Below are positions 31,143-57,372 of a stretch of DNA of 64,000 nt, piece by piece. The notes below the pieces were generated by a model. That model did not search any database. It saw nothing but the letters and a program-made list of their open reading frames with translations, and had not been told where the DNA came from. The stretch is from Gemmatimonadota bacterium (GTDB taxonomy: Bacteria > Gemmatimonadota > Gemmatimonadetes > Palauibacterales > Palauibacteraceae): NCBI GenBank assembly GCA_039589195.1, contig JBDHHV010000002.1, positions 1,126 through 65,125 on the forward strand, in the 5' to 3' direction. Each line of letters opens with the position of its first letter. Position 1 is the stretch's first letter. A program made the translations under genes and the position numbers.

Positions 31143-31165
31143 CGCGGCGGTCCCGGCTTCCCCGC

Positions 31166-32227
31166 TCACGCGCTCACCCCCAACCGCTCGCCGCCATACG
31201 TCGTCTCGCGGGTGCGGGCCCACCAGGTCTCGTGGTCCAGGTACCACTGGATCGTGCGTCCGAGACCCGTCTCGAAGCTCTCGAGGGGCTCCCAACCCAA
31301 CTCGCGGCGCGTCTTGCTCGCGTCGATCGCGTATCGTCGATCGTGCGCGCGTCGGTCGGCCACGAAGCTGATCTGACTCCGGAAGCTGCGGCCGTCACCG
31401 CGCGGGCGAATCGCGTCAAGGGTGTCACAGAGCTGGTTTACGACCTGGATGTTCTGCCGTTCGGCGCTCCCGCCTATCCCGTACGTCTCGCCGACCCGGC
31501 CCCGCAGCAGGACCGCCATGAGCGCCCGCACGTGATCCTCCACATAGAGCCAATCCCGCACATTGCGCCCATCCCCGTACACGGGGAGCGTCCTCCGCTC
31601 GAGAGCGCGCAGGATCATGTTCGGGATGAGCTTCTCGGGGAATTGGAACGGGCCGTAGTTGTTGGAGCAGTTCGTGACGATGACGGGCAGGTCGTACACA
31701 CGTTGCCACACGCGCGCGAAGTGGTCCGCGGCGGCCTTGCTGGCCGCATACGGCGAGTTGGGGTCGTACGGCGACGACTCCGTGAAGAAGCCTCGCGGCC
31801 CGAGCGTACCGAACACCTCGTCCGTGGATACGTGGATGAAGCGGAACTCGGTCTGATCGATCTCATCCGGGTCTACGTAGTGGCGGCGCGCTTCCGTCAG
31901 GAGGGTGCATGTCCCCACCACGTTCGTGTGCAGGAAGAGCATCGGCCCGTCGATCGACCGATCCACGTGCGACTCCGCGGCGAGGTGGAAGACGGCGCGC
32001 GGTCGATACTGCTCGAACAGCCGTCGAACCTCCGCGCCCTCGCAGATGTCCACCTGCTCGAAGCGATAGCGGTCGGACTGTTCCACCGAAGTGAGCGATT
32101 CAAGGTCACCGGCGTACGTCAGACAATCCACGTTCACGACCGCGTGCTCGGTCTCTCGGATCAGATGTCGGATGAGCGCGGAGCCGATGAATCCAGCCCC
32201 TCCCGTGACCATTATCGGTCGATTCAA
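31166..32227 (-). CDS. rfbB: dTDP-glucose 4,6-dehydratase. TTG start with a GGAGG Shine-Dalgarno; alternative ATG at 32212.
   Basis: [10 protein letters not shown] Rossmann. YAASKAAAD (YxxxK). RmlB-typical C-terminus. Confidence 0.88.
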
Positions 32228-32308
32228 CGACGCCTCCGTTGTCGTCCCGTCATTCGTGTGCCTCCCGGCGGCCTGCGCGTGCTCCCGCCGCCCGTGCCTG
32301 TTCCGCGC

Positions 32309-35809: not shown

Positions 35810-36515
35810 GTGCCTTTTCCTCGAGTTGGTGGAACGACACGAGCTCGATTCCGGAATCCGACAGCGTCTGTCGCACACCCGGGTCGCAGAGCACCGCGAG
35901 CTCGATCGCACGCTCGGTGGCGTAGGGCGCGCCGGCGTCCGCATCAGCACCGGGATGACACCCCACCTCCGTCACGCCGGGCTCGAGCCCGGTCAGAATC
36001 CGGAGCAGGCGATCGAGGGAGATTCCGTCCGGGAAGGGCTCGCCCTTCCCGGTCTGGCCGTAGAAGTCACCGCAGTATCGAACGGAGCCGAGCCCACGCA
36101 CCGGGACGCCGAGCTCTGCGGCAATCGCGAGCACGGCGGATCTCGCAGGCTCGCCGGAGTGCACGTGCTGGTGGGAGTCGATGTGTGTGGGTTCCAGGCC
36201 CGTCATGCTTCGAAAGGCTCTCAGCTGTCTCTCCAGCTCTTCACCGACTGCCGCCGGGTCCGCGGTCGGCACGACCTCGTAGAGTGCCGACCACCGGCCG
36301 TCGCGATGCACCCACTCTCCCAGATCCAGGTGCAGCCCGAGGCTCAAGTCCGGGAAGCTCCTGGCCGCGTGCACCGCCGCCTCGGCATGCGGGCGGCGGA
36401 CGAGCACGCTCGCGCTCGTCACGACTCCGCGCTCGTGCGCTTTGAGCACGCCCCGGTTGACACCCGGACTGAGCCCGAAATCGTCGGCGTTCACGATCAG
36501 TCGGCGTTCGGTCAC
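35793..36515 (-). CDS. YdjC/ChbG/HpnK family carbohydrate deacetylase. GTG start.
   Basis: IVNADDFGLSPGVNRGVLKAHERGVVTSASVL and HIDSHQHVH motifs of the YdjC family. Confidence 0.75.
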   Translation of the reverse strand: MTERRLIVNADDFGLSPGVNRGVLKAHERGVVTSASVLVRRPHAEAAVHAARSFPDLSLGLHLDLGEWVHRDGRWSALYEVVPTADPAAVGEELERQLRAFRSMTGLEPTHIDSHQHVHSGEPARSAVLAIAAELGVPVRGLGSVRYCGDFYGQTGKGEPFPDGISLDRLLRILTGLEPGVTEVGCHPGADADAGAPYATERAIELAVLCDPGVRQTLSDSGIELVSFHQLEEKAHVSIT

Positions 36516-36711
36516 GCGCGTTCTGGTGGCAGGGAGCGTTCCGGGGCTCGGCGCTCGGCGGAGGAACCGGTTTTCCGCTTAACCATGCGGGTCGAGCCGG
36601 TGCAGGCGACGGCTCGGAATCGAGGTCGCGAGCGAGGAAGGTGCAATCTTTTCAGCGGGGCGGAGTTTTCTTTCCAGCGGGGGGAGCTCCGTTTCTCGCG
36701 GTGTCGACCGT

Positions 36712-37260
36712 TCAACGCAGGGCTTCGACGAAGAGGCTCTCCGCCTCGCGGTTGTCCAACTCGGTGATCCCGGCATGCCCGCATCGCGTCTCGCGGAAAC
36801 CGCACCGCTGCACAAGAGAGAAACCCGCTTGCAGAAGCAACTCCTCGATGAAGTCGTATGTGAACAGCGTCCTCGAGTGGCCGTACCAGATGAGCTGGAG
36901 TACCATCTTGGCACCGATCGCCTTCGCGTCCTCGTCGGGGATGAGGAAATAGTCGGTGTCACCCGCCTCGTAGGCCTGCATGGCACGCTCGAGATCGGGA
37001 AGCGCGAGACGCAGGATCCCGCCGGGCTTCAGCACCCGGCGGAGCTCGGTGAGCACGGGCACGAGATCCGGGTAGGGGATCTCCTGCAGTGCGTGGATGG
37101 AGACCGCGTAATCGATGTTCGCGTCCGGTAGCGGCAATCCGTCCTTGACGTCGCACGCGTGCTGGATCCCGGGACCCTGCTTCGCGTCCGAGTTGATCCA
37201 GCCCGGCTCACCATGGGCACCGCACCCCCAGTTGAGTCGACGGACCGGCGAGCTCGTCAT
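36712..37260 (-). CDS. Class I SAM-dependent methyltransferase. Start reassigned to the ATG overlapping the upstream stop (ATGA).
   Basis: LNWGCG(A) motif I and LKPGGILRL post-I/II motifs. ~180 aa. Confidence 0.7.
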   Translation of the reverse strand: MTSSPVRRLNWGCGAHGEPGWINSDAKQGPGIQHACDVKDGLPLPDANIDYAVSIHALQEIPYPDLVPVLTELRRVLKPGGILRLALPDLERAMQAYEAGDTDYFLIPDEDAKAIGAKMVLQLIWYGHSRTLFTYDFIEELLLQAGFSLVQRCGFRETRCGHAGITELDNREAESLFVEALR

Positions 37261-38309
37261 CGAGGCCCCATGTCCAGCAGGACAGCGGCGTTCAGGGCGG
37301 TGGTCAACCAGTCCGTGCGGTGCTCGTGCGGAGGGGTCCAATCCGCGCCCCAACCCAGCCACTGGACCGCGACGATCAGCCGACAGGCCTGAAGACTCGA
37401 CTCGAAGGTGGCCCGGTCCGTTCGATACTCGGTCGGCAACGCCTCACGGTACGCAGCCGCGATTCGATCGCGCGCGGGCTCACTCCAATCTCCGGCGGTC
37501 AGGGCCGCCAGGTCGAAGAGCCCGGGGCCGAAGCCGGCGAGCTCCCAATCGACTGGCCGGACGACAGCCGACCCCCGCTTCTCTTCGAGCAAGACGTTCG
37601 AGGGATAGAAGTCACCATGTATGAGGGTCCGGGGGAGCTGGAGGACGAAGTCGACCGCCCGGAGGTAGGGTCCCGCGAGTCGCTCGAGGGCGCGCCGCGT
37701 CCCCTTTTCCGCGCGCGCGCTGGCGAATTGGCAAGCACGAGAGTACCAACCTCGCAGCAACCGCGGCGTATATTCCAGAAGCCGTGCGGCGCGGCAGGCC
37801 ACCTGAAAGCGCGTGATGGCCTGGCCTCTCGCGTGAAAGCCCGCGAGCCAGGCCGCGACTTCCTCCCAGCGCTCGATCGCCTCGAACTGGTATAGCTCAC
37901 GACCACGTATCCGCTCCAGGAGGAGCCATGAGCCGGGGGTCGCCCCGCGCGCACGCACGACCCCATAAAGGAATGGGACGTCCGGCTCCCGGTCCGCGAG
38001 CAGCGCGCGGTAGACCAGCACCTCTCTCATGCCATCGTACACATGAGTGGGCTTGCCATCGGATCGATCGGCGAGCGATCCGCCGACATCGATTCGTTTG
38101 AGCATCAGAGGCAGCGTGGATCCATCGGCTAGCTCGCCTTCCGCCTCGAGCAGGGTGTGGGTCGTGGCGTAGCGCGACCGTCGCCACCGAAGGCCGGCCA
38201 TTCGCGGGCGTCGTCGGTCCCGCCCCAGCGTCTCCGCGATCGCGAGGGCGAAATCCGTGTCGTCCGTGCCCGGGAGTCCGGGGCCGGGTGACGACGTGGC
38301 GGACGTCAA
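37257..38309 (-). CDS. Phosphotransferase (APH/choline-kinase-like protein kinase fold) family protein
   Basis: HGDFYPSNVLL (HGDxxxxN catalytic loop) and VDWELAGFG (D-W-E). ~350 aa. Confidence 0.65.
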   Translation of the reverse strand: MTSATSSPGPGLPGTDDTDFALAIAETLGRDRRRPRMAGLRWRRSRYATTHTLLEAEGELADGSTLPLMLKRIDVGGSLADRSDGKPTHVYDGMREVLVYRALLADREPDVPFLYGVVRARGATPGSWLLLERIRGRELYQFEAIERWEEVAAWLAGFHARGQAITRFQVACRAARLLEYTPRLLRGWYSRACQFASARAEKGTRRALERLAGPYLRAVDFVLQLPRTLIHGDFYPSNVLLEEKRGSAVVRPVDWELAGFGPGLFDLAALTAGDWSEPARDRIAAAYREALPTEYRTDRATFESSLQACRLIVAVQWLGWGADWTPPHEHRTDWLTTALNAAVLLDMGPR

Positions 38310-39460
38310 GCGATCCCCACCCGGCCCAACAGAGCCGTGAGAACGCTGTCCGAATCGAAGTGGCTCCGCGCGAGCGCACGGGCTGCGCGGGAGTGTGGCC
38401 TGTAATCGCGGCGGATGGCTCGAAGTCCCTCCGCCGCTTCATCCAGGGTCGTGAAAGCGCACAACCCGGCACCCGTCGGCAGGTAGCGCGAGAAGCCGGT
38501 CTCCTGCGCGAGGACCGGCCGGCCCGATGCCAGATAGCAGACGCTCCGATCGGAGAACCAGCCGCACGCGGCTTCGACGTATCCGGACTTGGCGACGCCG
38601 AGCTCGGCGAAGGAGTCGACGACGAAGCGGCGGTAGCGGTCGGGAGTACCAGCCGACTGCGTGGGATCCACGAGGACCCAGCCGCCGGCACGCAGCGAGG
38701 CCAGGTCGTCTCGTTCGTCGGGGTGTACGGTGAGCGCCAGCCGAACGCGCTCGTCCGCCAGTCTGGGCAGCTCCATCAGGGGACGGAGCGCGTGCGCCTT
38801 CTGCCCATAAAAAACGCCTTCGTGTCGAATCGAACCGTATGCGCGCCAGTTGGCCACCGTCGTGAACGACGCCTCGGCGGGCTCGCGGTTCGACTCGACG
38901 AGCGGCCAATACGGGAGCACCACGGGGGGTAGCGTCGGGATCCAGCTCCGCCCGCACGTCGGTATCGTGCAATCCGCCTCGGCCAGACCCGGCCCCACCG
39001 TGGCGAAATGCGTGTGACCCTCCAGCCCCAGATCCAGCCCCTCCACGGCGCTCCACAGCTGCGTGAAGCCGGGGTCGAGATCCACGTACAGGCGGGTGGG
39101 GATCGGTCCGGTGATCTCCCGGTCGCGGAGGACGCCGGACAGGTTGACGAGCAGGTCGGCGCGTCCGGCCGCGTCGATCACGCTCTCGTACGGCATGCCC
39201 ATGGCCCTGCGAGCGCCGGGGACGAGCAGCGCGGCCCTTCCGGCGAGACCGAAGCGTCGGCAGACACGGCCGAAATACTCCTCGACCGCCGGCCCGGACA
39301 CGGAGTCATCGAGCGGCTCGACGAGGGTGACCTCCCAGCCAAGCCGCCGGAGCCCCAGGGCGTATTGAAGCACCGCCCAGGTAGCGCCACCCTGCCCCGG
39401 GGTCCCGGCGAAGCGGCCGCTCACGATCGCCGTCCGTCGGCGAGACGAGGCGGGGATCAA
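38306..39460 (-). CDS. Divergent GT-B fold (GT4-like) glycosyltransferase, paralog 1 of 3 tandem copies. TTG start with GGAGAGGG Shine-Dalgarno.
   Basis: N-terminal Rossmann half with G-rich loop (GTPGQGGATWAVLQYALGLRRLGWEV). C-terminal half GWFSDRSVCYLASGRPVLAQETGF resembling the GT4 EAMA-G-PV donor-binding region. Paralogous to 39457..40635 and 40643..41884. Confidence 0.5.
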   Translation of the reverse strand: MIPASSRRRTAIVSGRFAGTPGQGGATWAVLQYALGLRRLGWEVTLVEPLDDSVSGPAVEEYFGRVCRRFGLAGRAALLVPGARRAMGMPYESVIDAAGRADLLVNLSGVLRDREITGPIPTRLYVDLDPGFTQLWSAVEGLDLGLEGHTHFATVGPGLAEADCTIPTCGRSWIPTLPPVVLPYWPLVESNREPAEASFTTVANWRAYGSIRHEGVFYGQKAHALRPLMELPRLADERVRLALTVHPDERDDLASLRAGGWVLVDPTQSAGTPDRYRRFVVDSFAELGVAKSGYVEAACGWFSDRSVCYLASGRPVLAQETGFSRYLPTGAGLCAFTTLDEAAEGLRAIRRDYRPHSRAARALARSHFDSDSVLTALLGRVGIA

Positions 39461-40635
39461 GCCGCCCTCTCCACGGGTCCGACGCGATCGAGAAACTCGC
39501 CCAGCACTCGGCTCGAGTCCAGATAGTGCTCGGCGAGCGCCCGGGCGGCGCTCGAATGCTCATCGTAGTCCCGCCGGATCCGGGCAGCGCCCGCGACGGC
39601 GTCCTCGAGGGTCCGGAACGTGAGCAGGCCGGCGTCGGTGGGCAGGTCCGAGAACCCGGTGTCCTCCACCAGCGCGGGTCTACCGGAGGCCAGATAATGG
39701 GCCGTCCGGTCGCTGAACCACCCGCTTAGCGTCTCGACGTAGATCTCCTGGGCGGCGGAGAACTCCGCATCGGATGCTTGGATGTAGCTCCGGTACGTGG
39801 CCGGATCCGGCACCACATCCCGCGGATCCACCAGCGACCATCCGTGCGTCCGCAGGGCATGCAGATCGACCGAGTCGCCGGGGTCGATCTGGAGGGCGAT
39901 CTCGAACCGCCCCTCGGCTCGTCTGGGGACGTCCAGGTACTCGCGAAACCGGTGCGCTTTCAGGCCCAGTCGACGGCCATCCCGGTGGAGAGAACCGAAC
40001 GCGCCACGCCAGCTCGCGACGGTTGTGAATCGGGGCTCCCGGCCAGCGTATCCGGCGCCCTCGGACGAGGGCCATTCCTCCATGAGCACCGGCGGCCGGA
40101 ATGGCTGCCACGCGAGACCACCGTCGGGTATCGCGCACCCCGCGAGCCCCACGTTGGCGCCCACGGTGAAGAAGGCCGTGTGGTCCCCGAGGCGTCCTCC
40201 GAGACCCTCGTCGTGCCAGAACTGGGTGAAGCCGGGGTCCAAATCGATGTACGCGCGGCGCGGCACGCGAGTCATGAACGGTTCGAGCGTCAGGTGGCCG
40301 CTCATGTTGACGAGCAGGTCGGCGTCGCCCGCCAGGTCGGCCAACTCCCCCGGTCCGAGCCCCGAGACCGGCTGCCCGTCTCGGGTCACGAGCGCTGACC
40401 GCTCCCCCAGTCCGAACTCACGCATCACGGCGTCGAAGTGGGCGCGGTGACCGCTGTCGCTCGGCGCGCACCGCTCGCCCAAACCGTCGGTGCATAGGCC
40501 CGGATCGATCTGCTCGAGGAAGTACACTTCCAAGCCGAGGCGCGCGAGACCGACCGCCCAGGTCATGCGAACCCACGCTTCGCCCGCGTTTCCGAGCTTG
40601 TTCGCCACCGCGCCCGCCACGATCGCGATCGTCAT
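39457..40635 (-). CDS. Divergent GT-B fold glycosyltransferase, paralog 2. Start reassigned to ATG at 40635; the track ORF extension overlaps the upstream gene.
   Basis: MTIAIVAGAVANKLGNAGEAWVRMTWAVGLARLGLEV...GWFSDRTAHYLASGRPALVEDTGF. Same architecture as its neighbours. Confidence 0.5.
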   Translation of the reverse strand: MTIAIVAGAVANKLGNAGEAWVRMTWAVGLARLGLEVYFLEQIDPGLCTDGLGERCAPSDSGHRAHFDAVMREFGLGERSALVTRDGQPVSGLGPGELADLAGDADLLVNMSGHLTLEPFMTRVPRRAYIDLDPGFTQFWHDEGLGGRLGDHTAFFTVGANVGLAGCAIPDGGLAWQPFRPPVLMEEWPSSEGAGYAGREPRFTTVASWRGAFGSLHRDGRRLGLKAHRFREYLDVPRRAEGRFEIALQIDPGDSVDLHALRTHGWSLVDPRDVVPDPATYRSYIQASDAEFSAAQEIYVETLSGWFSDRTAHYLASGRPALVEDTGFSDLPTDAGLLTFRTLEDAVAGAARIRRDYDEHSSAARALAEHYLDSSRVLGEFLDRVGPVERAA

Positions 40636-40642
40636 ACGCGAC

Positions 40643-41884
40643 TCACCCTGGTCCGACCGTGATGGGGGGTTGGGACGTCGGTCCTTGAGGATCGATCGGG
40701 CCCTGCGGAAGCGAAGCCGCCATTTCGTCCAGCAATCGTGCGAGCACGCGGTCGCTGTCGAGGTAGGCCTCGGCCAGCTCGCGGGCGGCACGCGCGTGGC
40801 GCTCCCAGTCGGCGTCGATCTGCGCGACGCCCACCACCGCACCTTCGAGGTCCGCGAACGAGAGCAGTCCCTCACCGCTCGGAAGAGCCGCTTCGAAGCC
40901 CGTGTCCGATGCGAGCACGGGTCGCCCACTGGCCAGATAGCAGGCCGACCGGTCGCTGATCCAGCCGCTTCGGGTCTCCGTGTAGAGCGCCTTCGCGACC
41001 ATCAACTCGGCACGCGAGCCGGCGATGAAGCCCCGATAGGCGTCGGGCCCGCCCGCGACGGTCAGCGGGTCCTGGATGGTCCACGCCGATTCGCTCAGGC
41101 GAGCGAGATCCGCTCGTTCGTTCGGGTGGATGTCCAGCGCGACGCGGAACTGCTGGCCTGTCCTCGAGGGGAGAGAGAGGAGCTCGCGGAATGCGTGCGC
41201 GCGCAGACCGTACGTATGGCCTTCGAACTCCAGCGAGCCGCTGTCGCCGCGCCATGTCGCGACCGTGGTGAAGCCGTCGCCCGGGTCCACGACCCGGGGC
41301 CACTCCTCGAGCACCACCGGGGGTAGCGTCGGAATCCACTCAACTCCGCACGCTGGGATCGTGCAGCCGGCGGACCCGATGCCCGTGCCGACGGTGACGA
41401 AGGCATCGTGCCCGGTGAACAGGTCCACGAGCCCCAGTTGGTGCCACATCTGGCCGAACCCGGGATCCAGGTCGACGAACACTCTGCGCTCGGGAGCGGA
41501 AAGGACCTCCTCGTCCGTCCAGTAGCCCATGAAGTTCAGGAGGAAGACCGAGCTCAGCGCATGGTCGATGACCGAGTCGCGCGACCGACCCAGATAACCC
41601 TCACCCTCGCACAGAAGGGCCCATGCGTCCGTCAAGCCGAAACGGTCCATGCAACGAGCGAAGTAGGCCAACTGGACCGAGTAGCGCGGCGCGCACGGGT
41701 GACCGGCGGCGTCCGTGCACATGTCCCGCTCCAGCCGGTCCAGAAACAGTACGTCCCAGCCAAGCCTCCGCAGCCCCAGCAGGTACTGGAGAAAGACCCA
41801 CACATGGCCGGCGCGGCGGTACCGCTGCGCGACGCCGCCTGCGACGATGATGCGTCCCCTGCTCCGAGCGACGCGGCTGCTCAT
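40643..41884 (-). CDS. Divergent GT-B fold glycosyltransferase, paralog 3
   Basis: RIIVAGGVAQRYRRAGHVWVFLQYLLGLRRLGWDV...GWISDRSACYLASGRPVLASDTGF. Confidence 0.5.
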   Translation of the reverse strand: MSSRVARSRGRIIVAGGVAQRYRRAGHVWVFLQYLLGLRRLGWDVLFLDRLERDMCTDAAGHPCAPRYSVQLAYFARCMDRFGLTDAWALLCEGEGYLGRSRDSVIDHALSSVFLLNFMGYWTDEEVLSAPERRVFVDLDPGFGQMWHQLGLVDLFTGHDAFVTVGTGIGSAGCTIPACGVEWIPTLPPVVLEEWPRVVDPGDGFTTVATWRGDSGSLEFEGHTYGLRAHAFRELLSLPSRTGQQFRVALDIHPNERADLARLSESAWTIQDPLTVAGGPDAYRGFIAGSRAELMVAKALYTETRSGWISDRSACYLASGRPVLASDTGFEAALPSGEGLLSFADLEGAVVGVAQIDADWERHARAARELAEAYLDSDRVLARLLDEMAASLPQGPIDPQGPTSQPPITVGPG

Positions 41885-41893
41885 GCGCGGGCC

Positions 41894-43234
41894 TCAGGCG
41901 CCCACGCCCGCGACGGGCGGTGGGATCAGCGCCGGCTTGTCCAGGTATCCGAACGCCCCCAGCGCCGGTCCCAGAGACTCATCGCAAGCCCGTAGCAGGT
42001 CGGGTGGCAGGTCCCGGCGCCAGCGTCCCACCGACGACGCGGGGTCTCTCGCGGTGCGGTGCTGCTCCACGCCCGGCATCCCGCGGGCCGCGTCCTCGAG
42101 CAGGGTACCCGCGGTGGACTCATCCGCCGGGAGATCCAGGTATTCGAGAAGCCGTATCACGGTCGGGATGGGGCGCAGGATGAGGTCCTCGTACCGCACC
42201 AGGTGTGCCTTGTCCGAGCGCGCCTCCCACTGGCCGCGGATGGCTTCCGCCTGGGAGGTGAATTGACGGATCCAGTCCGAGTCGCTCTCGGCCCGGTCGC
42301 GGCCCCAACCGGTGTGCCCGCGTTTCTCGATAAAGGCGAGGATGGAGCAGACCACGTCCCGGAAATCACGCACCAGCACGATCTCCTTGGGCGCGGAGTA
42401 GAGCTCCCAGACCAGGTCCGGGATGTGCCCGCGCATCATGAGCTTCTCGGCATAGTAAACCGGTGTCTCGAGCTCCGAGAGACCGGCGATCTCGCCGTAC
42501 AGGGTGTCGATCTGCCGCTGACAGAAGCTCGCCAGATCCCGCGCCCGGGTCCCACTCAGGCGGGCATCCAATGCCGGGTCCATGGGAGGCGGCCTGAAGC
42601 CGGGGCCGCCCGCCCACCAGTTGTCGCCGAGATCGGTCGGGATCGTGAGCTGTCGCAGGTAGCTGTCGGGGTCGACGAGCGTGCGGAACAGCTCGAACCA
42701 GTACATGGTCACCCGCGCTTCGTACGGGAAGCGGCCATGCACGACGATCTTCGGACTCGCGTCCAGCAGCCGCATCATCCAGGTGGAGCCGCTCCGGCCC
42801 AGGGTCGTCAGCATGAGCGGCTGTAGCCGCGGCGCGTAGTCGCTCATCAGCTCGGGGCGGCGGCCCTCGATCGTCGCCACGGTCGCCCTGCGACCGTTCT
42901 CGAACACCACCCGCACGAGCAACGTGAAGTCCCGAGACAGACCCGCCAGACCGATCAGACACCTGAAGCCCGAGCGCTCGACTCCCGGGGCGCCGGCATG
43001 CAGTTGGGCGATGTCCGGACGCTCGATGTCCACGGGTCCACGGGCCACGGTCACGCCGCGGTCCAGGACCTCGACTTCAGCGACAGCTGCGTCCGCGCCT
43101 ACGGCCCACCCGCGGATGGCGAGGTGCGAGGCCGTCCTGGTACCCGTGTGCCGGGGCTCATCCAGCCCGTGCGCCTTGAGTCCCTCGGTTCCCGCGGGTG
43201 ATTTGACGATGCTGTGGATGTCGAACCCGTTCAC
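41894..43234 (-). CDS. Sulfotransferase family protein with a ~130-aa N-terminal accessory domain
   Basis: 5'-PSB-like TTLGRSGSTWMMRLL and 3'-PB-like RDFRDVVCS PAPS-binding motifs. N-terminal domain related to the N-terminus of the neighbouring GT2 (43231..45192). Confidence 0.72.
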   Translation of the reverse strand: MNGFDIHSIVKSPAGTEGLKAHGLDEPRHTGTRTASHLAIRGWAVGADAAVAEVEVLDRGVTVARGPVDIERPDIAQLHAGAPGVERSGFRCLIGLAGLSRDFTLLVRVVFENGRRATVATIEGRRPELMSDYAPRLQPLMLTTLGRSGSTWMMRLLDASPKIVVHGRFPYEARVTMYWFELFRTLVDPDSYLRQLTIPTDLGDNWWAGGPGFRPPPMDPALDARLSGTRARDLASFCQRQIDTLYGEIAGLSELETPVYYAEKLMMRGHIPDLVWELYSAPKEIVLVRDFRDVVCSILAFIEKRGHTGWGRDRAESDSDWIRQFTSQAEAIRGQWEARSDKAHLVRYEDLILRPIPTVIRLLEYLDLPADESTAGTLLEDAARGMPGVEQHRTARDPASSVGRWRRDLPPDLLRACDESLGPALGAFGYLDKPALIPPPVAGVGA

Positions 43235-45192
43235 TCGTCCGCCCCCCCGTCTTCCGTTTCTTCCCCGTCACCCGGCGGGCACGCGCCGCCGGCCATCGCC
43301 TCGTACGGAAACGCCGCCCGAGCTTCCTGGATGGTCTCGTCCCACAGATGAGTGTGCAGCCAGGCGTTGAAGCGGGTGTTCAGCGAGCGTGCCGCCGATG
43401 GATACGACTGGCCCTCGAGGTGGTACAGCTCCGCATCGGGCAGATACCAGGATGCGAGCCCTCGCTCGAACAGCCGCAGGCAGAGGTCCGAGTCTTCGAA
43501 ATCCCCCTGTACGTAGACACCTCGCAGTCCGCCCAACTCCTCGTAGAGAGCCCGCTCCAACAGCACGCAGGCACCGGTCACCGCCGGTACGCGTCGAGTC
43601 AGGTTGGCGGCAGGGAGCGACCGCGGCATGCCCTTGAAGTAGTGCATGTTCAGCCACACGTCGTTGCCCGGCTGGCGGTCGAAGTACATGCCCGCGTGCT
43701 GGAGCGTATCGTCCTCGTACAGGAGCTTCGCCCCGAGGGCTCCGATACGCGGCGTCTCGTCGTAGAACGAACGCATCTTCCCGAGCCACCCCGGGTGGTG
43801 CGGCAGCACATCCGAGTTGAGCAGCAGAGCCAGCCGCCCACGCGCGGCTCCAACCCCCAGGTTGTTCGCCGCTGAAAAGCCCCCGTTCCGATCCAGCGTT
43901 ACCACTCGAAACGGCACGCGATACAGGTCGTGGAGCTGCGGTGCCGAGATGGCCAGGGCGTCGGCCTGATCGGGCGAATCCAGCACGTAGATGAGGTCCA
44001 CCTCTCGCATCGCCGGATCGTGCACGAACTGAGCGAGCTGCGCCTCCAGGAACTCGAGGCGTCGGTACAGCGGGACGATGATCGAGATCTCGGCGGCGGC
44101 GGGCGTCGCCCCGTACTCCGTGATCTCCGCCACGGCCACTTGATCCATGAGGCGCGTCTGCAGTCGGTTCAGCGCGGGCGCGAGGTGGTCGGTCAGGAGC
44201 GTCTCGGCAGGCCGGGTCTCGCCACCGAGCTGTTTCAGAAGCGCTCGCCGAACACGCTCCGGATCCTTGATCACCGGAGGGGCGGCCGTGACGGCCCGAT
44301 CACCCTCCGCGTTCGTCATCTCGACCCGCCAGCCGTGCGGGAGCCGGCTCGGCCCTCGTGTTCCGAAACGCGCGCAGAAGCCCGTCGAGGTGGAATGTTC
44401 GGCGCCCGCGGGTGCATAGAACTTCTCTACATCGGGGCGCCGGAACCTGTGCAGCGTGTCGAACACCGAAACCCGGTGTCCCTCGGGCGATACGAGCCGG
44501 AGGTCCACGACGCGGGCCTCGCGGTCGTGCAGCCAGCCTCGCACGAAGAAGGTCTCCTCGTCGATCGAGAAGATCTCGTCGACGTGCAGGCCGCGCGGCT
44601 CCTCGGATGCGATCACCACAGGATCCGGAGACTCGCATAGCAGATCGCGTGCGATGGCGAGGGCGCGGCTGGTCTCGAACGGGACCGGCAGCCCGAGCTT
44701 GCGTGGAACCCCCGCCAGGAAGTCCGCCAGACGCCCCCGATCCCTGGCCGGCAGTGGCACGAGCCCGCCCAGGAGCAGGGTGTCCAGGTCGGTCAGCGAC
44801 TTGGAGAGGTCCGAGGGACCGAGCGTCAGGACTCGGTCGCCGGACCGGACCGCAAGACGTCCCATACGGGAAGCGGCTCGTGGGGGCCGGAGCAGGCGCA
44901 CGGCGACCACCTTCGCGGGGCTTGGATCCTCCGGAGGGGGATCGGAGCGCGCGTACGACTCGAAGCATGCGTCGAGGGACTCGAGCTGGCCGTCTCGCTC
45001 GAGCGCGAACTCGATCTCACCGTCCGGTGCCGGGAACCAGCCCACGAGGATCAGAATTTCCTCGCCCAACCAGGCGGCGTAGTCCACCCAACCACCCAGG
45101 CTGTCGGGGATCCACGCGGACTCCGCGACCGCGCTCCCTGGGGCTGCCACCCCGACCGATCCTCTCGTCTCATCCGGCCGATCGGGTCTCAT
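43231..45192 (-). CDS. GT2 family glycosyltransferase with a long N-terminal accessory region. Start reassigned to the ATG overlapping the upstream stop.
   Basis: SIIVPLYRR...DSP... DxD-containing GT2-A fold. LLNSDVLP. QxxRW-like region. Confidence 0.78.
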   Translation of the reverse strand: MRPDRPDETRGSVGVAAPGSAVAESAWIPDSLGGWVDYAAWLGEEILILVGWFPAPDGEIEFALERDGQLESLDACFESYARSDPPPEDPSPAKVVAVRLLRPPRAASRMGRLAVRSGDRVLTLGPSDLSKSLTDLDTLLLGGLVPLPARDRGRLADFLAGVPRKLGLPVPFETSRALAIARDLLCESPDPVVIASEEPRGLHVDEIFSIDEETFFVRGWLHDREARVVDLRLVSPEGHRVSVFDTLHRFRRPDVEKFYAPAGAEHSTSTGFCARFGTRGPSRLPHGWRVEMTNAEGDRAVTAAPPVIKDPERVRRALLKQLGGETRPAETLLTDHLAPALNRLQTRLMDQVAVAEITEYGATPAAAEISIIVPLYRRLEFLEAQLAQFVHDPAMREVDLIYVLDSPDQADALAISAPQLHDLYRVPFRVVTLDRNGGFSAANNLGVGAARGRLALLLNSDVLPHHPGWLGKMRSFYDETPRIGALGAKLLYEDDTLQHAGMYFDRQPGNDVWLNMHYFKGMPRSLPAANLTRRVPAVTGACVLLERALYEELGGLRGVYVQGDFEDSDLCLRLFERGLASWYLPDAELYHLEGQSYPSAARSLNTRFNAWLHTHLWDETIQEARAAFPYEAMAGGACPPGDGEETEDGGADE

Positions 45193-46517
45193 GCAGCCGC
45201 CTCCGAGCGCTTCCGCTCCATCAGCTGGCGGTAGATGGCCGAGATCGACTTGACCGCATCTTCCATCCAATACACCTCGGGAATTCCGGTCTGGAGGCGA
45301 GCCCACAGCTCGGGGTCACGAGCCGCCCGCGCGATCGTGCGCGCGAGGGAGCGCGGATCCCCGGCCCGGAAGTGCAATCCGCTGACGCGGTCCTCCACTT
45401 TCTCCGCCATGCCGCCGATATCGCTGCAGATCACCGGTCGCCCGTGCATGAACGCTTCCTGAATCACGAGCGGGGAGTTCTCGAACCAGATCGAGGGGAT
45501 GACCACCCAGTCGATCGCGCGCATCAGATCGGGCAGCTCGGATGGCTCGTAACGGCCCACCATGGTGACGCGCTCGCGAGTCGCGTCGAGCTGCTCCTCG
45601 AACTCGCGCCGAAACTCGGGGGACCGGAACTCCAGATTCGCGCCATGTAGCCAGACGCGGGGCCGGGGGTCCGTCACGACCTCGTCGGCCAGGATTTTCA
45701 TGGCCTCGAGGAGGACCGTCACTCCCTTGAACGGGCTCAGCTGCCCGAAGAACGCGAATCGATTGCGGGGGCGCTCGGGATCGTCGAGTTCGATCGACCC
45801 CGGCTCGGGCTCGGGCGGACGAATCCGTCCGTTCGGCTCGAAGCGCAGCTTCTCCCGCGGGATGCCCCAATCCACGTAGCGGTCCACCAGGAAGCGGCTC
45901 GGCGCCAGGAAGAGGTCCACCAGCTCGAAGTGGGATTGGATGAAGCGCTTTCTGGCAAGGAACGCCTGCGGCGATATCTCGGGGAAGCACTCGTGGCAGC
46001 GCCGCGGCGAGGACTCCATACAAGGGCGGTCGTTCATGGTCCGCAGCATCTGACCATCCCGATGGCAGATCGGCAGGTACTCGTGCAGCGTGTACACGAT
46101 CGCCGAGTCCGGGAGCGTGTTTCGGATCTCGCGCAGGATGTCGACTCCCAGAAACAGCGTGTGCTGGAAGTGGACCACGTCGGGACGATACGAGAGCAGG
46201 ACATCCCTGAAGCTCTGCGTATACAGGCGCTTGTCCGGGACCGTCATGCGAAACAGATCGAAGGCGGAGCCCTCGGTATGGAAGAAGAGCTGGCCCTCGT
46301 CCTGGTTCACCCGAGACAGACGCGTCCCCGGGTGAGGAGCTGCCGCACGTGATACCGGCGGGCCGTTACGCGCCAACAAGACGGGGTCGAACTCGCCGGC
46401 CTTTTTGACGCCTTGGTACAGCTCCAGAGCGTAATTTTCTACGCCGCCGGGAACGATGGACGGGTGATTGTGGGTCACGTAGAGGACCCTCGGTCGTTCG
46501 CTGGATGCCGAGCTCAC
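45189..46517 (-). CDS. GT4 family (glycosyl transferases group 1) glycosyltransferase. GTG start.
   Basis: WFENSPLVIQEAFMHGRPVICSDIGGMAEKVEDRVSGLHF (E-X7-E region). Confidence 0.85.
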   Translation of the reverse strand: MSSASSERPRVLYVTHNHPSIVPGGVENYALELYQGVKKAGEFDPVLLARNGPPVSRAAAPHPGTRLSRVNQDEGQLFFHTEGSAFDLFRMTVPDKRLYTQSFRDVLLSYRPDVVHFQHTLFLGVDILREIRNTLPDSAIVYTLHEYLPICHRDGQMLRTMNDRPCMESSPRRCHECFPEISPQAFLARKRFIQSHFELVDLFLAPSRFLVDRYVDWGIPREKLRFEPNGRIRPPEPEPGSIELDDPERPRNRFAFFGQLSPFKGVTVLLEAMKILADEVVTDPRPRVWLHGANLEFRSPEFRREFEEQLDATRERVTMVGRYEPSELPDLMRAIDWVVIPSIWFENSPLVIQEAFMHGRPVICSDIGGMAEKVEDRVSGLHFRAGDPRSLARTIARAARDPELWARLQTGIPEVYWMEDAVKSISAIYRQLMERKRSEAAA

Positions 46518-47273: not shown

Positions 47274-48887
47274 TCAATAACTCCCTGCGGAGGTCACCCG
47301 ACCCTCGTCCTGCACGGTGCGCTCGTGGGCGGTGCTCGCCCGCGCCGCGCTCGAGGTCCGGTCTCCGGTCGTGAGCCTGTAGATCACACCCGCCGCATCG
47401 TCCGCGATCGTGCGGTAGTATCGTTCCAGGTGTTCGTGGAAGTCCGGGTACTTTTCGAACCACCACCTCGCGTTATCCGGGATCAGCAGGTAGTCGCCTT
47501 CCCCCCGCCCGCGCAGCGCTTCGAGCTGCGAGATCGCCTCCTCGCTCGAGGCGGGGTGGTGGCCGGCGTACACGCCGTCTCCGGTCTGTGGGAAGTGCGT
47601 GGCCCGAGCGCCCTCGACCGCGACCAGCTCGGGGTCTCCGTGGCTCACGACGAGTAGGGCCGCTCCGCGGGGGACGCTCGAGTCGGCGAGACTGCGCGCA
47701 CGGCGGACCTCCGCGCGGTGCCGGAGATCGCTTCCGGCCACGAACGCCGGGACCTCGCCGAGCGGGCCGGCTCTCGAGCAGGCCACAGCCTCCTCGAGAG
47801 CCAGGAGCCGGGACTCCAGCGCTTCATCCCGCCGGAGCTCGGTGCGAGGGTCGGGATCTCCCGTTCCCGAGGGCGTCACATCGGCACCAGCCCCCGTCAG
47901 GCGTGTGTCCCCGTCGGTGGTGGAGGCTTCGGGGGGAATGCCCAACTCCAGATGCGCCACGCGGGCCATCAGGCGAGTGGCCTCGCCCAGGAGCGCGCGC
48001 ACCTGTCGGGAGCGTGCCGCGAGGATCGCCTCCACGTCACCGGTGCGGGACCCGGGGTCGAAGAAGGCGAGCTCCGGGGCGACGTCCAGGGCGTGTGGGT
48101 ACGCGGACTCGTATGCAAAACGGATCAGGCCGTCGGCCAGATACTGGTCCACGTCATCGGGACGCACATGCTCCGACCACTGTTCCCGGTATCTGCGCAC
48201 ATTGTCGCGGTCGTGCCCGAAACGGCCCTCGGAGACGGATTCCAGGTGCTCAACCACGCACTCGGGGCAGTAATGGATCTCGCTGCCGGCTTCCCCCAGA
48301 CGCAGGCAGAGATCGACGTCCTCGAACCCGTTCCGGTAGCCCTCGTCGAACCCTCCCACACGATCGAAGGCATCGCGGCGGACCAGGATGCACGCCGCGG
48401 TCACCGCCTGGAGGCGTCGGGCCCGGTTCACCGCGGGGTGATCGCTCGGGAAGCCCGCGTACAGGTGGCGGGGATACCCATCCTGGCAGAAGACCACCCC
48501 GGCGTGCTGAACCGCCCCGTCAGGGTACAGGAGCTTCGCCCCCAGGGCGGCAGCTTCGGGGTGCGTGGCGGCGTAGCTCGTGAGTGCGTCGAGCCAGCCG
48601 GGATGCGGCCGGGTGTCGTTGTTCAGGAAAACCAGCCAACCGGCTTCGGATGCGGCCGCCCCCGCGTTGCAGGCGACGGCGAACCCGGCATTCTCCGGGT
48701 TGTCAACGACCCGAACCGCGTCCCCTCGCTCTGCGAGCACGCGGAAGGTGTCGTCCGTCGAGCCGTCATCCACGACGATCACTTCGTGCGACACCGCGGG
48801 GGGGTGCGCGAAGATGACTTCCAGACACCGGTCCAGCAGGGCGGCGGCGTTGAAGGTCGGGATGATGATCGAGCACTCGGGCATCAT
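47274..48887 (-). CDS. GT2 family glycosyltransferase fused to a coiled coil and the conserved C-terminal DUF domain. Start reassigned to ATG at 48887.
   Basis: MMPECSIIIPTFNAA...VIVVDDGSTDDT...GFEDVDLC GT2 motifs. C-terminus SHGD...HFPQTGDGVYAGHHPASSEEAISQLEALRGRGEGDYLLIPDNARWWFEKYPDFHEHLERYYR. Confidence 0.78.
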   Translation of the reverse strand: MMPECSIIIPTFNAAALLDRCLEVIFAHPPAVSHEVIVVDDGSTDDTFRVLAERGDAVRVVDNPENAGFAVACNAGAAASEAGWLVFLNNDTRPHPGWLDALTSYAATHPEAAALGAKLLYPDGAVQHAGVVFCQDGYPRHLYAGFPSDHPAVNRARRLQAVTAACILVRRDAFDRVGGFDEGYRNGFEDVDLCLRLGEAGSEIHYCPECVVEHLESVSEGRFGHDRDNVRRYREQWSEHVRPDDVDQYLADGLIRFAYESAYPHALDVAPELAFFDPGSRTGDVEAILAARSRQVRALLGEATRLMARVAHLELGIPPEASTTDGDTRLTGAGADVTPSGTGDPDPRTELRRDEALESRLLALEEAVACSRAGPLGEVPAFVAGSDLRHRAEVRRARSLADSSVPRGAALLVVSHGDPELVAVEGARATHFPQTGDGVYAGHHPASSEEAISQLEALRGRGEGDYLLIPDNARWWFEKYPDFHEHLERYYRTIADDAAGVIYRLTTGDRTSSAARASTAHERTVQDEGRVTSAGSY

Positions 48888-51427
48888 CGACGCCCCTCGC
48901 GGTTGGCATGACTCTCCGGCCGGGGACCGGCCTCCATCAGTGGACCGGTCAGACGGTACAGCACACCGGTCCCGGGCTCCTCGGCCACGACGCACGCGTG
49001 GCGACGGAGCCGCTCGGCCAGCTCTTCGTAGTGCGACAGCCACCAGAGGGACGTGGCCGGGAGCAGCAGATAGCCCGCGCCCCCGCGCCGAAGCTCTTCG
49101 AGGTGCGTAATCGCGTCCCACGCCGTAGCCGGGTGGTGGCCGGCGTACCCGCCGCCGGGGGCCTGCGGGAAGTGGGCGGCACGGTGGCTCTGGAGCTCCA
49201 CGAGCGCCTCATCGCCGCGGCTCGCCACCAGCACCATCTCCCGCTCTGGCACGTGCCGGCTCACGAGATCCAGCGCATGCGCCCGCTGCCGCTCGTAGTC
49301 GGGGTTCGATCGTCGGCCGTAAGGCGGCGGCGGCTCACCCCATTTCCGCTCGAAGCGGGCCCGGTTCTCGCGCAGCAACGCGTCGTACTCGCCTTCTCCG
49401 ACAAGCGCCCCGAACGATCCCTTGTCGAAGTGGTGCATGAACACGTCTTCGGCGGACACGAGTCGGAGACCTGCTCCCCGGATCCGGTGGCAATAGTCGT
49501 CGTCCTCGAGGGTGCCGAGTCCAAAGCGCTCATCCAGGGCCCCGATCCGCTCCCAGGTCGAGCGGCGCAGCGCGAAGCAGAACATCGTGAGAGACGGGAT
49601 GTCCCGCGGTTCCCCCGCGTGCCGCTCCCGGCGTTCCCGGGCGAACCGCATCAAGTCGCCGTATGTGTCGTACGAGGCGTCGATCTGCGCCTCGTTGCAG
49701 ATCCGGTTCGTGACCGGCCCCACCGCTCCGACCGACGGATCGGACAGGTGCCGCAGCAGGTCGCCCAGCCACCAGCGTGGAGGGATCGTGTCGTTGTTGA
49801 GCAGGACCAGGGCGGGGGCGCGAGACATCTCCATCCCGAGGTTACACGCGGCCGCGAACCCGAGGTTGCTGTCGGACAGCCGGACCCGGACCCTCGGGTG
49901 CGAGCGGGCGAGATCGCGCAGGTATGCCGGCGTGTCATCCGTGGACGCGTTGTCGAGGACGATGAGCTCGTAGTCCCCGATTTCCGTGTTCGCGAGCAGG
50001 CTCTCCAGACAGAGTCGGGTCAGGAGGAGCCCGTTGTGCGTGACGACGATCACGCTCGCCCGTGGCTTGACCGATGGCTCGTCCCCGGGTGGAAGCAGCG
50101 CACCCGACGACCCTGGCCACGGGCGGTCGAGCACGAGCCGGGCGCTCTCCTCCGAGAGCCGAACGGGATTCCGTGACACCGGCTCGAGCACCAGCTCGCG
50201 GGGGAATGCGTCGACGTTCTTCAGCACGGGGCGCACGCGCGGGTGGGCGGTAGCGGCTCCAATCTGGTCCAGCATGTGTCCGAGCACTCGACCCGCGTCG
50301 AAGTACTCGTTCGCGATGTCCTCGGCGGCTCGCGCGTGCCCGTCGTAGTCAGAGCGTATCGCCTCGAGCGCCGCCCTCGCTTCGTCGAGCGTGTCGAACG
50401 CGAACAGACCGAGGCCCGTGGGGAGAGTCTGACCGAGACCCGTATTTTGGGTGATGACGGGGCAGGCGGCAGCCAGGTACGTGGCGCTGCGGTCGCTGAA
50501 CCAGCCGCTTCTGAGCCTTACGTTCTGGTCCTTCGCGACCGTGAACTCCGCCCGTGAACCCTGAATGTAGGCGCGGTACGCGTCGAGATCCGCGGAGAGC
50601 GGCCCTGCATCGCGAACCGCCCAGCCCACCGCTTCGAGGAGGTCTCGGTCCTCTCGCTCGACACCCGAGAGCGCAAGCTCGAACGAATCCGGGGCAGCCG
50701 ACGGCAACTCGCGTACCTTCTCGAATTGCTCGTGCTTGCTCCAGCGATACAGCTCGCCGCGGAACCGGATGTCGCGCCATTGCCGCCAGCTGGCGATCGT
50801 CGTGATGAGCTCGCGCTCACTCCTCGCTTCCGGCTCTGTGCGCCACAGGTCGAGCACCACCGGTTGCCGGGTGGGCCGGAAGCGGAATGCGGACGAGTCG
50901 GGCACCCCACAGTCCCCGTTCCCGAGGTTCTCCCCGAAGCTGAAGTGGGCGAAGTGGCTCGCGAGGAATCGCGCCGTGCTCTCGAAGCGGTGGAAGAGCT
51001 CGAGCTGCGGGAGCACCGGGTCCGTCTCCACATAGACGAGGCGATCCCGGTCGTGTCCGGGCCGCGGTGTCGTGCCACCGTGCAGGTTCAGGATCAGCGA
51101 GGCCCGGTCGTAAAGCCGGGCCAGCTCTTCCGGCGTCATCCCGAGGCAGTCACCGTCCGCGTGTAGCGCCTCGTACGCCCACCGATCCCCAAAGCCGAAG
51201 CGGCTCAAGTGACGGTCCAGGTATGCGGCGGCCCCACGCACGCCGAAAGGATCGCCCGGCTTCACGAATGCGGAGGGTGTGCGGGCGTGCGCCTCGACGT
51301 AGTACACGTCGTACCCCAACCGGCGCAGACCGATGAGGTAGTGCAGCGTCTGCCACACCACCCCGGCGACCGGCATCGGTGTCATCATCCCCAGGACGAC
51401 GGCGCGTGGGCGCCCGAGCAGTCTCAT
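48884..51427 (-). CDS. Three-part fusion: divergent GT-B domain (4th paralog) + GT2 domain + conserved C-terminal DUF domain
   Basis: N-terminus AGVVWQTLHYLIGLRRLGYDV...GWFSDRSATYLAAACPVI. Middle SVIVVTHNGLL...DNASTDDT...GTLEDDDYC. C-terminus SRGD...HFPQAPGGGYAGHHPATAWDAITHLEELRRGGAGYLLLPATSLWWLSHYEEL. Confidence 0.7.
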   Translation of the reverse strand: MRLLGRPRAVVLGMMTPMPVAGVVWQTLHYLIGLRRLGYDVYYVEAHARTPSAFVKPGDPFGVRGAAAYLDRHLSRFGFGDRWAYEALHADGDCLGMTPEELARLYDRASLILNLHGGTTPRPGHDRDRLVYVETDPVLPQLELFHRFESTARFLASHFAHFSFGENLGNGDCGVPDSSAFRFRPTRQPVVLDLWRTEPEARSERELITTIASWRQWRDIRFRGELYRWSKHEQFEKVRELPSAAPDSFELALSGVEREDRDLLEAVGWAVRDAGPLSADLDAYRAYIQGSRAEFTVAKDQNVRLRSGWFSDRSATYLAAACPVITQNTGLGQTLPTGLGLFAFDTLDEARAALEAIRSDYDGHARAAEDIANEYFDAGRVLGHMLDQIGAATAHPRVRPVLKNVDAFPRELVLEPVSRNPVRLSEESARLVLDRPWPGSSGALLPPGDEPSVKPRASVIVVTHNGLLLTRLCLESLLANTEIGDYELIVLDNASTDDTPAYLRDLARSHPRVRVRLSDSNLGFAAACNLGMEMSRAPALVLLNNDTIPPRWWLGDLLRHLSDPSVGAVGPVTNRICNEAQIDASYDTYGDLMRFARERRERHAGEPRDIPSLTMFCFALRRSTWERIGALDERFGLGTLEDDDYCHRIRGAGLRLVSAEDVFMHHFDKGSFGALVGEGEYDALLRENRARFERKWGEPPPPYGRRSNPDYERQRAHALDLVSRHVPEREMVLVASRGDEALVELQSHRAAHFPQAPGGGYAGHHPATAWDAITHLEELRRGGAGYLLLPATSLWWLSHYEELAERLRRHACVVAEEPGTGVLYRLTGPLMEAGPRPESHANREGRR

Positions 51428-57135: not shown

Positions 57136-57372
57136 CGCTCTCCGTGTCTCATGACGGTCAGCCGAAGTGGCCGACCTCCATCAAATCCATACCAGGGCAT
57201 ACCGGTTTCATCGGGTACTCCAAACCGGCACTCTCGATGGGTGGCGATGTCGTCGCTACCCCGTTGCGCCGAAGCGGACGGCGGGAACGACGAGGCGGGA
57301 GTCCGCGGGGCCAGAACGGGGGTCCGACCGACGGCGATCCCACGCCGTGTCGGCAGCTTTCGGGGGAGCGGC

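Follow-up and report, generated by a model that had tools for sequence, protein, structure and literature searches.

The window analysed here is a 64,000-nucleotide (64-kb) stretch of the genome of a Gemmatimonadota bacterium (GenBank assembly GCA_039589195.1, contig JBDHHV010000002.1, positions 1,126 to 65,125), with a G+C content of 64–71% in 2-kb blocks. A putative sulfotransferase gene and a gene for a family 2 glycosyltransferase (GT2) are adjacent within its long minus-strand gene run (Table 1), and their products very probably share a small accessory β-sandwich domain, referred to below as the module. Such a relationship was first proposed in a first-pass annotation of the sequence, and the peptide stretches quoted there are both found in minus-strand open reading frames (ORFs), 41894-43234 and 43231-45192. 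The start of the GT2 gene can be placed in three ways. The ORF is open as far as GTG 45306 (43231-45306, 691 residues), the ATG at 45192 yields 653 residues, and the Joint Genome Institute (JGI) gene calls on identical contigs yield 617–618 residues. The JGI-called start lies ~35 codons inside ATG 45192 and would cut a conserved, confidently predicted strand. The numbering of the 653-residue form is used throughout, since ATG 45192 shares bases with the stop codon of the GT4 gene upstream and the alignments of homologues begin nearby.

The N-terminal 138 residues of the sulfotransferase carry no Pfam assignment, and the part that follows is matched by both PF13469 (Sulfotransfer_3, residues 139–372, E-value 2.9e-13, 51 bits with a cut-off of 27) and PF00685 (Sulfotransfer_1, residues 140–421, E-value 4e-9, 36.7 bits with a cut-off of 22). 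Sulfotransferases that use 3'-phosphoadenosine 5'-phosphosulfate (PAPS) bind the 5'-phosphosulfate through a loop of the type GxxGS/T-T and the 3'-phosphate through an R...S motif. Two segments, T144-LGRSGSTW and V288-RDFRDVVCS, match these PAPS-binding motifs, and residues Gly146, Arg147, Gly149, Arg289, Asp290, Arg292, Asp293, and Ser297 are invariant or at least 90% conserved among 38 homologues. By profile and motifs, the gene product is a putative PAPS-dependent sulfotransferase. Searches with the full-length query found 482 sulfotransferase homologues, and among the 120 listed the query coverage is 80–100%, so that the N-terminal domain is conserved throughout this large group of sulfotransferases.

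The Pfam GT2 match covers residues 369–607 of the glycosyltransferase (407–645 in the 691-residue numbering), with scores above threshold for PF13641 (57.8 bits) and PF00535 (45.5 bits), and the N-terminal ~350–368 residues match no Pfam or NCBIfam family even at E ≤ 10. The AlphaFold2 model of the full chain, based on a 60-sequence alignment, has a mean predicted local distance difference test (pLDDT) score of 90.9 and a predicted template modelling (pTM) score of 0.87. Behind a disordered tip (residues 1–27), the model consists of an all-β domain (c1), a set of helices (126–132, 136–144, 149–160, 162–165, and 172–185, with pLDDT >90), a β-sandwich (c2), linker helices, and a Rossmann-like α/β region comprising residues 354–630. 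In Foldseek searches the model is closest to GalNAc-T2, GlfT2, and K4CP, with E-values from 1e-9 to 8e-13. Among 60 homologues, at least 90% conserve Asp405 and the segment N-S460-D461-V462, the motif being NSD and not the canonical DxD. From profile and model, the protein is predicted to be a glycosyltransferase of the GT-A fold. Its N-terminal architecture was found in 507 representative clusters at E ≤ 1e-3 in an exhaustive HMMER search of 1.84 billion proteins. The two families surfaced only in this search and in the one made with the full-length sulfotransferase; in a word-indexed homologue search the N-domain alone (139 residues) gave no match, and the GT2 N-terminus gave only 4 proteins.

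The pairwise similarity between residues ~17–126 of the sulfotransferase and residues ~195–305 of the GT2 is marginal if taken alone. The BLASTP E-value is 0.009, with 26% identity over 92 columns and the register as first proposed, and the Smith–Waterman score of 58 (shuffle mean 34 ± 5) was reached in 3 of 2000 shuffles. When hhalign compares the 43-sequence profile of the sulfotransferase N-domain with the 5-sequence profile of the GT2 N-terminus, the score is 35.4 and the E-value 1e-4, and the probability that hhalign assigns with this small GT2 profile is only 56–63%. Such values could be explained by convergence or chance, with two unrelated small β-sandwiches from a GC-rich proteome, abundant in Ala, Arg, Gly, and Val, coming to share three short motifs. 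However, column-shuffled controls that preserve the composition never approach the observed score (13.7 ± 2.6 with a maximum of 26.4 for n = 300, z ~8), and a reversed profile gives 12.5; the pair thus exceeds the shuffles, the comparison on which the first-pass annotation had let its proposal depend. With 60–75 GT2 homologues, the probability rises to 93–94.4% (E-values from 3e-7 to 9e-8), and an independent profile built from 69 module copies of non-sulfotransferase proteins only yields 95% (E-value 4e-8), so that two independently built profiles agree in the same register at 94–95%. The sulfotransferase-module hidden Markov model (HMM) also gives direct matches to c2 in nine further GT2-family proteins, with E-values from 3e-6 to 6e-5. 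In a six-frame scan of the window (708 segments), the best non-self match of each HMM is the other protein, at the correct position, making the matches reciprocal; the module was found in these segments on no protein besides the sulfotransferase and the GT2. The explanation by convergence or chance is therefore largely refuted and must be considered very unlikely, also in view of the identical order of secondary structure elements described below, and the two segments are, with high confidence, homologous and anciently related. A recent duplication within the genome was also considered and rejected, the modules being ~23–26% identical, whereas each protein is 63–71% identical to its own orthologue.

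The N-domain of the sulfotransferase, modelled with AlphaFold2 from the 43-sequence alignment, is a β-sandwich with a pLDDT of 93.3, which together with the score of the GT2 model indicates a folded domain and not a disordered segment. It consists of eight strands and one helix (strands 3–11, 19–26, 37–46, 51–58, and 61–70, helix 73–78, and strands 89–95, 102–111, and 116–125). In the GT2 model, the strands of c2 lie within residues 200–303 and the helix comprises residues 253–259. Under the hhalign alignment laid on the models, six elements correspond one-to-one in a β4-α-β3 order: strands 19–26 with 200–209, 37–46 with 214–223, 51–58 with 228–234, and 61–70 with 240–250, helix 73–78 with 253–259, and strand 89–95 with 271–277 (sulfotransferase and GT2, respectively), with two further strands behind them in matching order. 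The positions named as conserved in the first-pass annotation proved to be anchors in both family alignments, where GW, RPD(I/V), and GF are invariant or nearly so. They are Gly42 and Trp43, Arg72 (followed by Pro73 and Asp74), and Gly89 and Phe90 in the sulfotransferases, with GW, Arg72, and GF invariant or nearly so, and Gly219 and Trp220, Arg252, Pro253, Asp254, and Val255, as well as Gly271 and Phe272, in the GT2 family. In both modules the RPD motif opens the single helix, GW is located at the end of the second aligned strand, and GF at the start of the fifth. The module can thus be described, from alignments and models, as a domain of ~110 residues with four strands, a helix, and three strands, carrying conserved GW, RPD, and GF motifs. 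The proposal that a homologous β-rich accessory module is present on two different catalytic domains is borne out by both the profile–profile scores and the matching predicted folds.

A second, degenerate copy closer to the N terminus of the GT2 had also been proposed, and this part of the proposal is only partly upheld. The comparison of c2 with c1 by hhalign gives a score of 25.7 (probability 38%, E-value 3e-4), compared to 9.4 ± 1.9 and a maximum of 16.1 for 200 shuffles, and the register is unchanged, with GW and R.D aligned. The AlphaFold2 model of c1 contains eight strands at residues 35–124, the count and order of the strands being as in c2, with the helix absent. On the other hand, c1 compared with sulfotransferase-type profiles by hhalign is not significant (probability 2–3%). 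The assignment of c1 as a module copy is based on the c2–c1 profile score and the predicted fold only, and c1 (residues ~30–124) is likely, with less certainty than c2, to be a second and more eroded copy.

The accessory regions correspond to no family in Pfam (E ≤ 10) or NCBIfam, and PDB sequence searches with both module profiles gave nothing meaningful. Foldseek searches with the module against the PDB yielded no match at E ≤ 1e-3. The best matches are generic sandwiches of immunoglobulin (Ig), ML, or fibronectin type III (FnIII) kind, with E ≥ 9e-3 and template modelling (TM) scores <0.46. The top matches are the ML domains of MD-1 and NPC2, for which the Foldseek probability reaches 0.97 while the E-values are 9e-3 to 0.1, the TM-scores 0.3–0.46, and the root-mean-square deviations (rmsd) 7–12 Å, and the Pfam ML family does not match the module. 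Other near neighbours in the same weak range include the Ig-like domain of the sulfite dehydrogenase SorT and IgV domains. No described family of carbohydrate-binding modules (CBMs) or lectins matches the module in Pfam, in PDB sequences, or in the Foldseek-PDB search. The module was consequently not assigned to the CBMs, the ML domains, or the TarS-like domains, as only generic sandwiches at E ≥ 9e-3 were found. No description of such an accessory β-sandwich on sulfotransferases or glycosyltransferases was found in the literature. As far as the searched libraries, solved structures, and literature go, the module family is new, while accessory β-sandwiches on glycan-active enzymes are a known kind.

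A functional link between the GT2 and the sulfotransferase is likely, as several features of gene organization indicate. Four-base overlaps of start and stop codons join the GT4 gene with the GT2 gene (ATGA) and the GT2 gene with the sulfotransferase gene (GTGA), and the GT2 and sulfotransferase genes are predicted to be translationally coupled. The order GT2 (~825–850 residues), GT2 (~500 residues), small protein, GT4, this GT2, and sulfotransferase is kept across phyla, in relatives whose sulfotransferases are only 36–40% identical, and a relative with a 71%-identical sulfotransferase shows full synteny downstream of the sulfotransferase. A gene of this rare GT2 family is found within 10 kb in 31 of 69 species-level loci (those with at least 3 kb upstream) and is the immediate upstream neighbour in 14, whereas in several other loci one extra module-bearing sulfotransferase is placed between the GT2-family gene and the sulfotransferase. 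Single-chain fusions of GT2 and sulfotransferase occur in seven of the 150 best GT2-family representatives (P0192, P0254, P0201, P0259, P0274, P0270, and P0187; metagenome representatives of 775–1079 residues), and their domains are arranged as (c1)-c2-GT2-module-sulfotransferase, which mirrors the order of the genes in the window. Two other proteins (P0127 and P0239) are GT2–methyltransferase fusions, and in P0260 a sulfotransferase domain is N-terminal to the GT2 unit. The suggestion that the sulfotransferase acts on the glycan built by the GT2 is thus well supported through overlaps, gene order, neighbourhood, and fusions. The shared module, with which that suggestion had been argued, is itself weak evidence for the specific pairing, because the module is present on many other enzymes in related clusters.

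Both genes belong to a conserved operon-like cluster that includes a GH2-like/GT2 synthase, a fused ATP-binding cassette (ABC) exporter with transmembrane and nucleotide-binding domains (TMD-NBD), three GT2s, a GT4, the GT2 described here, and the sulfotransferase, as well as paralogous GT-B-like proteins, a kinase-like protein, YdjC, and dTDP-rhamnose genes (Table 1). At the likely upstream end of the cluster, a 919-residue ORF has both a GH2-like TIM-barrel segment and a GT2/GT21 synthase-like domain, and the exporter that follows has only the ABC_membrane and ABC_tran families in Pfam. The module HMMs do not match this exporter. An ABC exporter gene is present upstream in three of three distant relatives (L002–L004), preceded by the GH2-like/GT2 gene in two of them (L002 and L004). 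From the presence of rhamnose-pathway genes downstream in the cluster, rhamnose is likely a component of the predicted glycan.

Table 1. Positions of the two genes, of their domains, and of neighbouring features in the 64-kb window
Feature	Position	Strand	Description	Basis
Sulfotransferase gene	41894-43234	-	446 residues; GTG start at 43234, stop 41894-41896	ORF list, Pfam, homologues
GT2 glycosyltransferase gene	43231-45192	-	653 residues from ATG 45192	ORF, Pfam GT2, ATGA overlap, homologue starts
GTGA overlap	43231-43234	-	Sulfotransferase start codon / GT2 stop codon	Sequence read
ATGA overlap	45189-45192	-	GT2 start codon / stop codon of upstream GT4 gene	Sequence read
Sulfotransferase N-terminal β-sandwich module	42830-43234	-	Residues 1-135, conserved core ~17-126	Translation, AlphaFold2, family alignment
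Sulfotransferase catalytic domain	41897-42820	-	Residues 139-446; LGRSGST and RDFRDxxxS motifs	Pfam 139-372, 140-421
GT2 c1, N-terminal all-β domain	44821-45105	-	Residues 30-124; probable degenerate module copy, helix lost	Translation, AlphaFold2, hhalign
GT2 helical segment between c1 and c2	44638-44817	-	Residues 126-185	AlphaFold2
GT2 c2, internal β-sandwich module	44278-44610	-	Residues 195-305; probable homologue of the sulfotransferase N-module	Translation, hhalign, AlphaFold2
GT2 GT-A catalytic domain	43303-44133	-	Residues 354-630, linker helices 311-350 before	Pfam, AlphaFold2, Foldseek
GT4 gene	45189-46517	-	Upstream of GT2	GT4 Pfam matches
GH2-like/GT2 synthase-like protein, then ABC exporter	51427-56051	-	Likely upstream cluster end	Pfam
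Carrier of HFP...GYHP segment	46514-47269	-	251 residues; segment at 114-240	Sequence comparison
Carrier of HFP...GYHP segment	47274-49121	-	615-residue GT2; segment at 470-584	Sequence comparison
Carrier of HFP...GYHP segment	48884-51427	-	847-residue GT2; segment at 702-827	Sequence comparison
~390-residue domain copy	38306-39460	-		Sequence comparison
~390-residue domain copy	39457-40929	-		Sequence comparison
~390-residue domain copy	40643-41884	-		Sequence comparison
~390-residue domain copy	Within 48884-51427	-	Residues 6-400 of the encoded protein	Sequence comparison
APH-like kinase	37257-38309	-	Downstream cluster gene	
YdjC	35796-36578	-	Downstream cluster gene	
SPOR + DUF5916 protein	32312-35971	-	1220 residues; downstream cluster gene	
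Rhamnose pathway, dehydratase	31169-32308	-		Pfam
Rhamnose pathway, nucleotidyltransferase	30189-31394	-		Pfam
Rhamnose pathway, RmlD-like	28661-29635	-		Pfam
S9 prolyl-oligopeptidase-family protein	25950-28595	-	After the giant paralogues	
Two adjacent giant paralogues	18320-26170	-	1278 and 1338 residues	Many FG-GAP repeats and ASPIC/UnbV domains
LytTR response regulator, His_kinase-type sensor pair, cytochrome-c/TPR protein	56374-59438	-	Upstream of the glycan cluster	

The occurrence of the module was followed in a scan of one genome per species, in which 273 relatives of the sulfotransferase were found and 77 loci were kept. These loci belong to Solirubrobacterales and other Actinomycetota, Thermomicrobiales and other Chloroflexota, Gemmatimonadota, filamentous cyanobacteria (Lyngbya, Okeania, and Microcoleus), Thiotrichaceae (Thioploca, Thiomargarita, and Marithrix), Chlorobiaceae, Myxococcota, Verrucomicrobiota, and Bryobacterales. 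Scanned with the module HMM, a 21-kb locus contains one to six copies, and the module-bearing ORFs in 81 loci comprise 109 sulfotransferases and 68 other proteins. In ten examples analysed with Pfam, the partners are GT2s with an N-terminal module, Methyltransf_11 proteins with a C-terminal one, a second type of sulfotransferase, GT2-GT2 proteins, and a cyanobacterial protein with the TPR-GT2-GT2-module arrangement. The module is thus placed N-terminally on sulfotransferases and GT2s, C-terminally on Methyltransf_11, and between or after GT2 domains. At least two module-bearing genes are present in 31 of the 48 loci with full flanks. Judging from these sequences, the module family is promiscuous, and the appearance of one module on different catalytic domains extends far beyond the pair in the window. 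In the locus of Okeania sp. KiyG1, the region at ~11850-15055, downstream of the sulfotransferase, contains regularly spaced, partial, and weak (1–15 bits) matches to the module HMM, and may encode a repetitive protein with degenerate module copies.

We can propose a role for the module if, prior to export, the cluster enzymes all work in the cytoplasm and on a single lipid-linked glycan. The module would then be a common targeting domain, holding the tailoring enzymes on the nascent glycan or on its carrier at the membrane, where the GT2 would add a sugar and the sulfotransferase would then sulfate the same chain; it may additionally provide self-association, as do the accessory β domains in TarS. 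Targeting to a common lipid-linked glycan acceptor is the reading we prefer, tentatively, by analogy with the systems discussed below and at chances that do not exceed even. Several observations weigh against it. In 17 of the 48 loci with full flanks (35%), the sulfotransferase is the sole module-bearing gene within 10 kb, and a shared role of the module across the cluster is therefore not universal. The best PDB matches found by Foldseek are generic Ig-like or ML-type sandwiches, none of them CBMs, and the conserved Trp, Phe, Arg, and Asp residues could be core or structural rather than binding-site residues. Finally, the pTM score of the GT2 model suggests that c1, the helices, and c2 are rigidly packed on the catalytic domain and do not form a tethered module.

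The last of these points is what would be expected if the module served instead as a protein–protein interaction domain, integrated rigidly in the structure and mediating homo-oligomerization or docking to other enzymes, a scaffold, or the ABC exporter, so that a membrane-proximal assembly line would form with no direct recognition of the glycan. The Ig-like fold, with the SorT Ig-like domain and IgV domains among the PDB neighbours, agrees with such a function, as do the presence of the module on several different enzymes of one cluster and the sharing of two other non-catalytic modules by neighbouring cluster proteins. The analogous domains of TarS are a trimer interface (PMC5156392). However, the loci with a lone module-bearing sulfotransferase indicate that hetero-docking through pairs of modules is not general, leaving homo-oligomerization as the possible mode there, and the GT2–sulfotransferase fusions keep both modules, though docking of these partners would be redundant in them. 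An interaction domain is the main alternative and a serious one; it agrees with the observations as well as the substrate- or carrier-recognition role suggested in the first-pass annotation does, although targeting is judged somewhat more likely. A lipid-binding role is improbable. In it, the module would associate with the membrane or with polyprenyl-phosphate instead of the sugar chain, as ML-domain sandwiches bind lipids, and would bring enzymes that are otherwise soluble to the cytoplasmic side of the membrane. The ML domains of MD-1 and NPC2 are indeed the top Foldseek matches, and the enzymes, which by Pfam have only catalytic domains, would have to work on a lipid-linked intermediate exported by the fused TMD-NBD exporter; the ML matches are nevertheless weak in E-value, TM-score, and rmsd alike, as given above.

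Targeting to a lipid-linked acceptor, the reading preferred here, has counterparts in known systems. In TarS, the β-GlcNAc transferase of Staphylococcus aureus wall teichoic acid, tandem C-terminal CBM-like β domains form a trimer and were proposed to bind poly-ribitol-phosphate and to raise processivity (PMC5156392). TarS, which works in the cytoplasm on a lipid-linked polymer, resembles the GT2 in having a GT-A (GT2) catalytic domain with tandem accessory β domains attached via helices. Its accessory domains are C-terminal, however, and similar to starch-binding CBMs, whereas the present module lies N-terminally, is marked by a GW/RPD/GF signature of its own, and also occurs on sulfotransferases and methyltransferases; neither the Foldseek-PDB nor the sequence searches matched the module to TarS or to a CBM. 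The polypeptide GalNAc-transferases (GT27) provide, with their GT-A domains, the closest solved structures to the catalytic domain of the GT2. Their ricin-type lectin domain directs the enzyme to substrates already carrying a glycan, which is the mechanism proposed here for the module, but that domain is a β-trefoil, C-terminal, eukaryotic, and lumenal, and it is related to the module neither in sequence nor in structure. GlfT2, the mycobacterial galactan polymerase (Foldseek matches 4fiy and 9dtp), is a polymerase of the GT-A type whose lipid-linked glycan substrate is met on the cytoplasmic side of the membrane, and its N-terminal β-rich domain takes part in tetramer formation and membrane apposition. 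Nevertheless, its global alignment to the GT2 is poor (TM-score ~0.3, rmsd ~25 Å), leaving homology of the β domains without support. Among CBMs, including the C-terminal CBM of Wzt in O-antigen ABC transporters, one small β-sandwich family may be found on different domains that recognize the same glycan. The same logic would apply to the module, one β-sandwich being appended to enzymes that meet one glycan, with the difference that classical CBMs belong to degradative enzymes that are secreted and the CBM of Wzt to a transporter, whereas the module is carried by predicted cytoplasmic biosynthetic tailoring enzymes.

To our knowledge, little is understood of the carbohydrate sulfotransferases of bacteria, whose acceptors are rarely known, and nothing of how they find these acceptors. 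Here a compact, confidently folded family is the common mark of hundreds of enzymes (sulfotransferases, GT2s, and methyltransferases) from many phyla, while synteny and natural fusions tie the sulfotransferase of the window to a specific GT2 partner. With the module as a sequence signature, enzymes of the same uncharacterized sulfated glycan could be found in uncultured bacteria of soil and water, which offers a concrete, testable entry to the question of how such sulfotransferases find their substrates, even if the arrangement is not surprising in principle. Should the module prove to serve in recognition or docking, it would reveal the way in which tailoring enzymes are brought to glycan assembly linked to an ABC exporter, beyond the Enterobacterial models. 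We can speculate further, and with considerable doubt, that the module is the address tag of a widespread, unrecognized assembly line that produces a sulfated and methylated glycan in the cytoplasm, recruiting interchangeable tailoring enzymes to one lipid-linked polymer or exporter complex, much like the docking domains of polyketide synthases and nonribosomal peptide synthetases. An uncharacterized envelope polymer, produced by the conserved cluster in which the module occurs (with its ABC exporter, GH2-like/GT2 synthase, and several module-sharing enzymes), would then be common in soil Actinomycetota, Chloroflexota, and Gemmatimonadota, as well as in filamentous cyanobacteria and giant sulfur bacteria.

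The two other non-catalytic modules mentioned above are also located in the cluster. One is a C-terminal segment of ~110 residues (HFP...GYHP...YLL.P...WW...Y), shared by three proteins at 37–45% identity with E-values from 1e-19 to 3e-23. No Pfam family covers this segment, and the 251-residue carrier has no Pfam match at all. The other is a domain of ~390 residues present in four copies that are 35–47% identical (E-values from 1e-49 to 1e-103), three of them encoded by separate genes in tandem and the fourth forming the N-terminal part of a GT2 protein, and for this domain the only Pfam signal is a weak match to Glyco_trans_1_2. In the ORF 39457-40929, which carries one of these copies, the alignments begin near residue 97–103, and the true start is therefore probably an internal Met (MTIAIV...).

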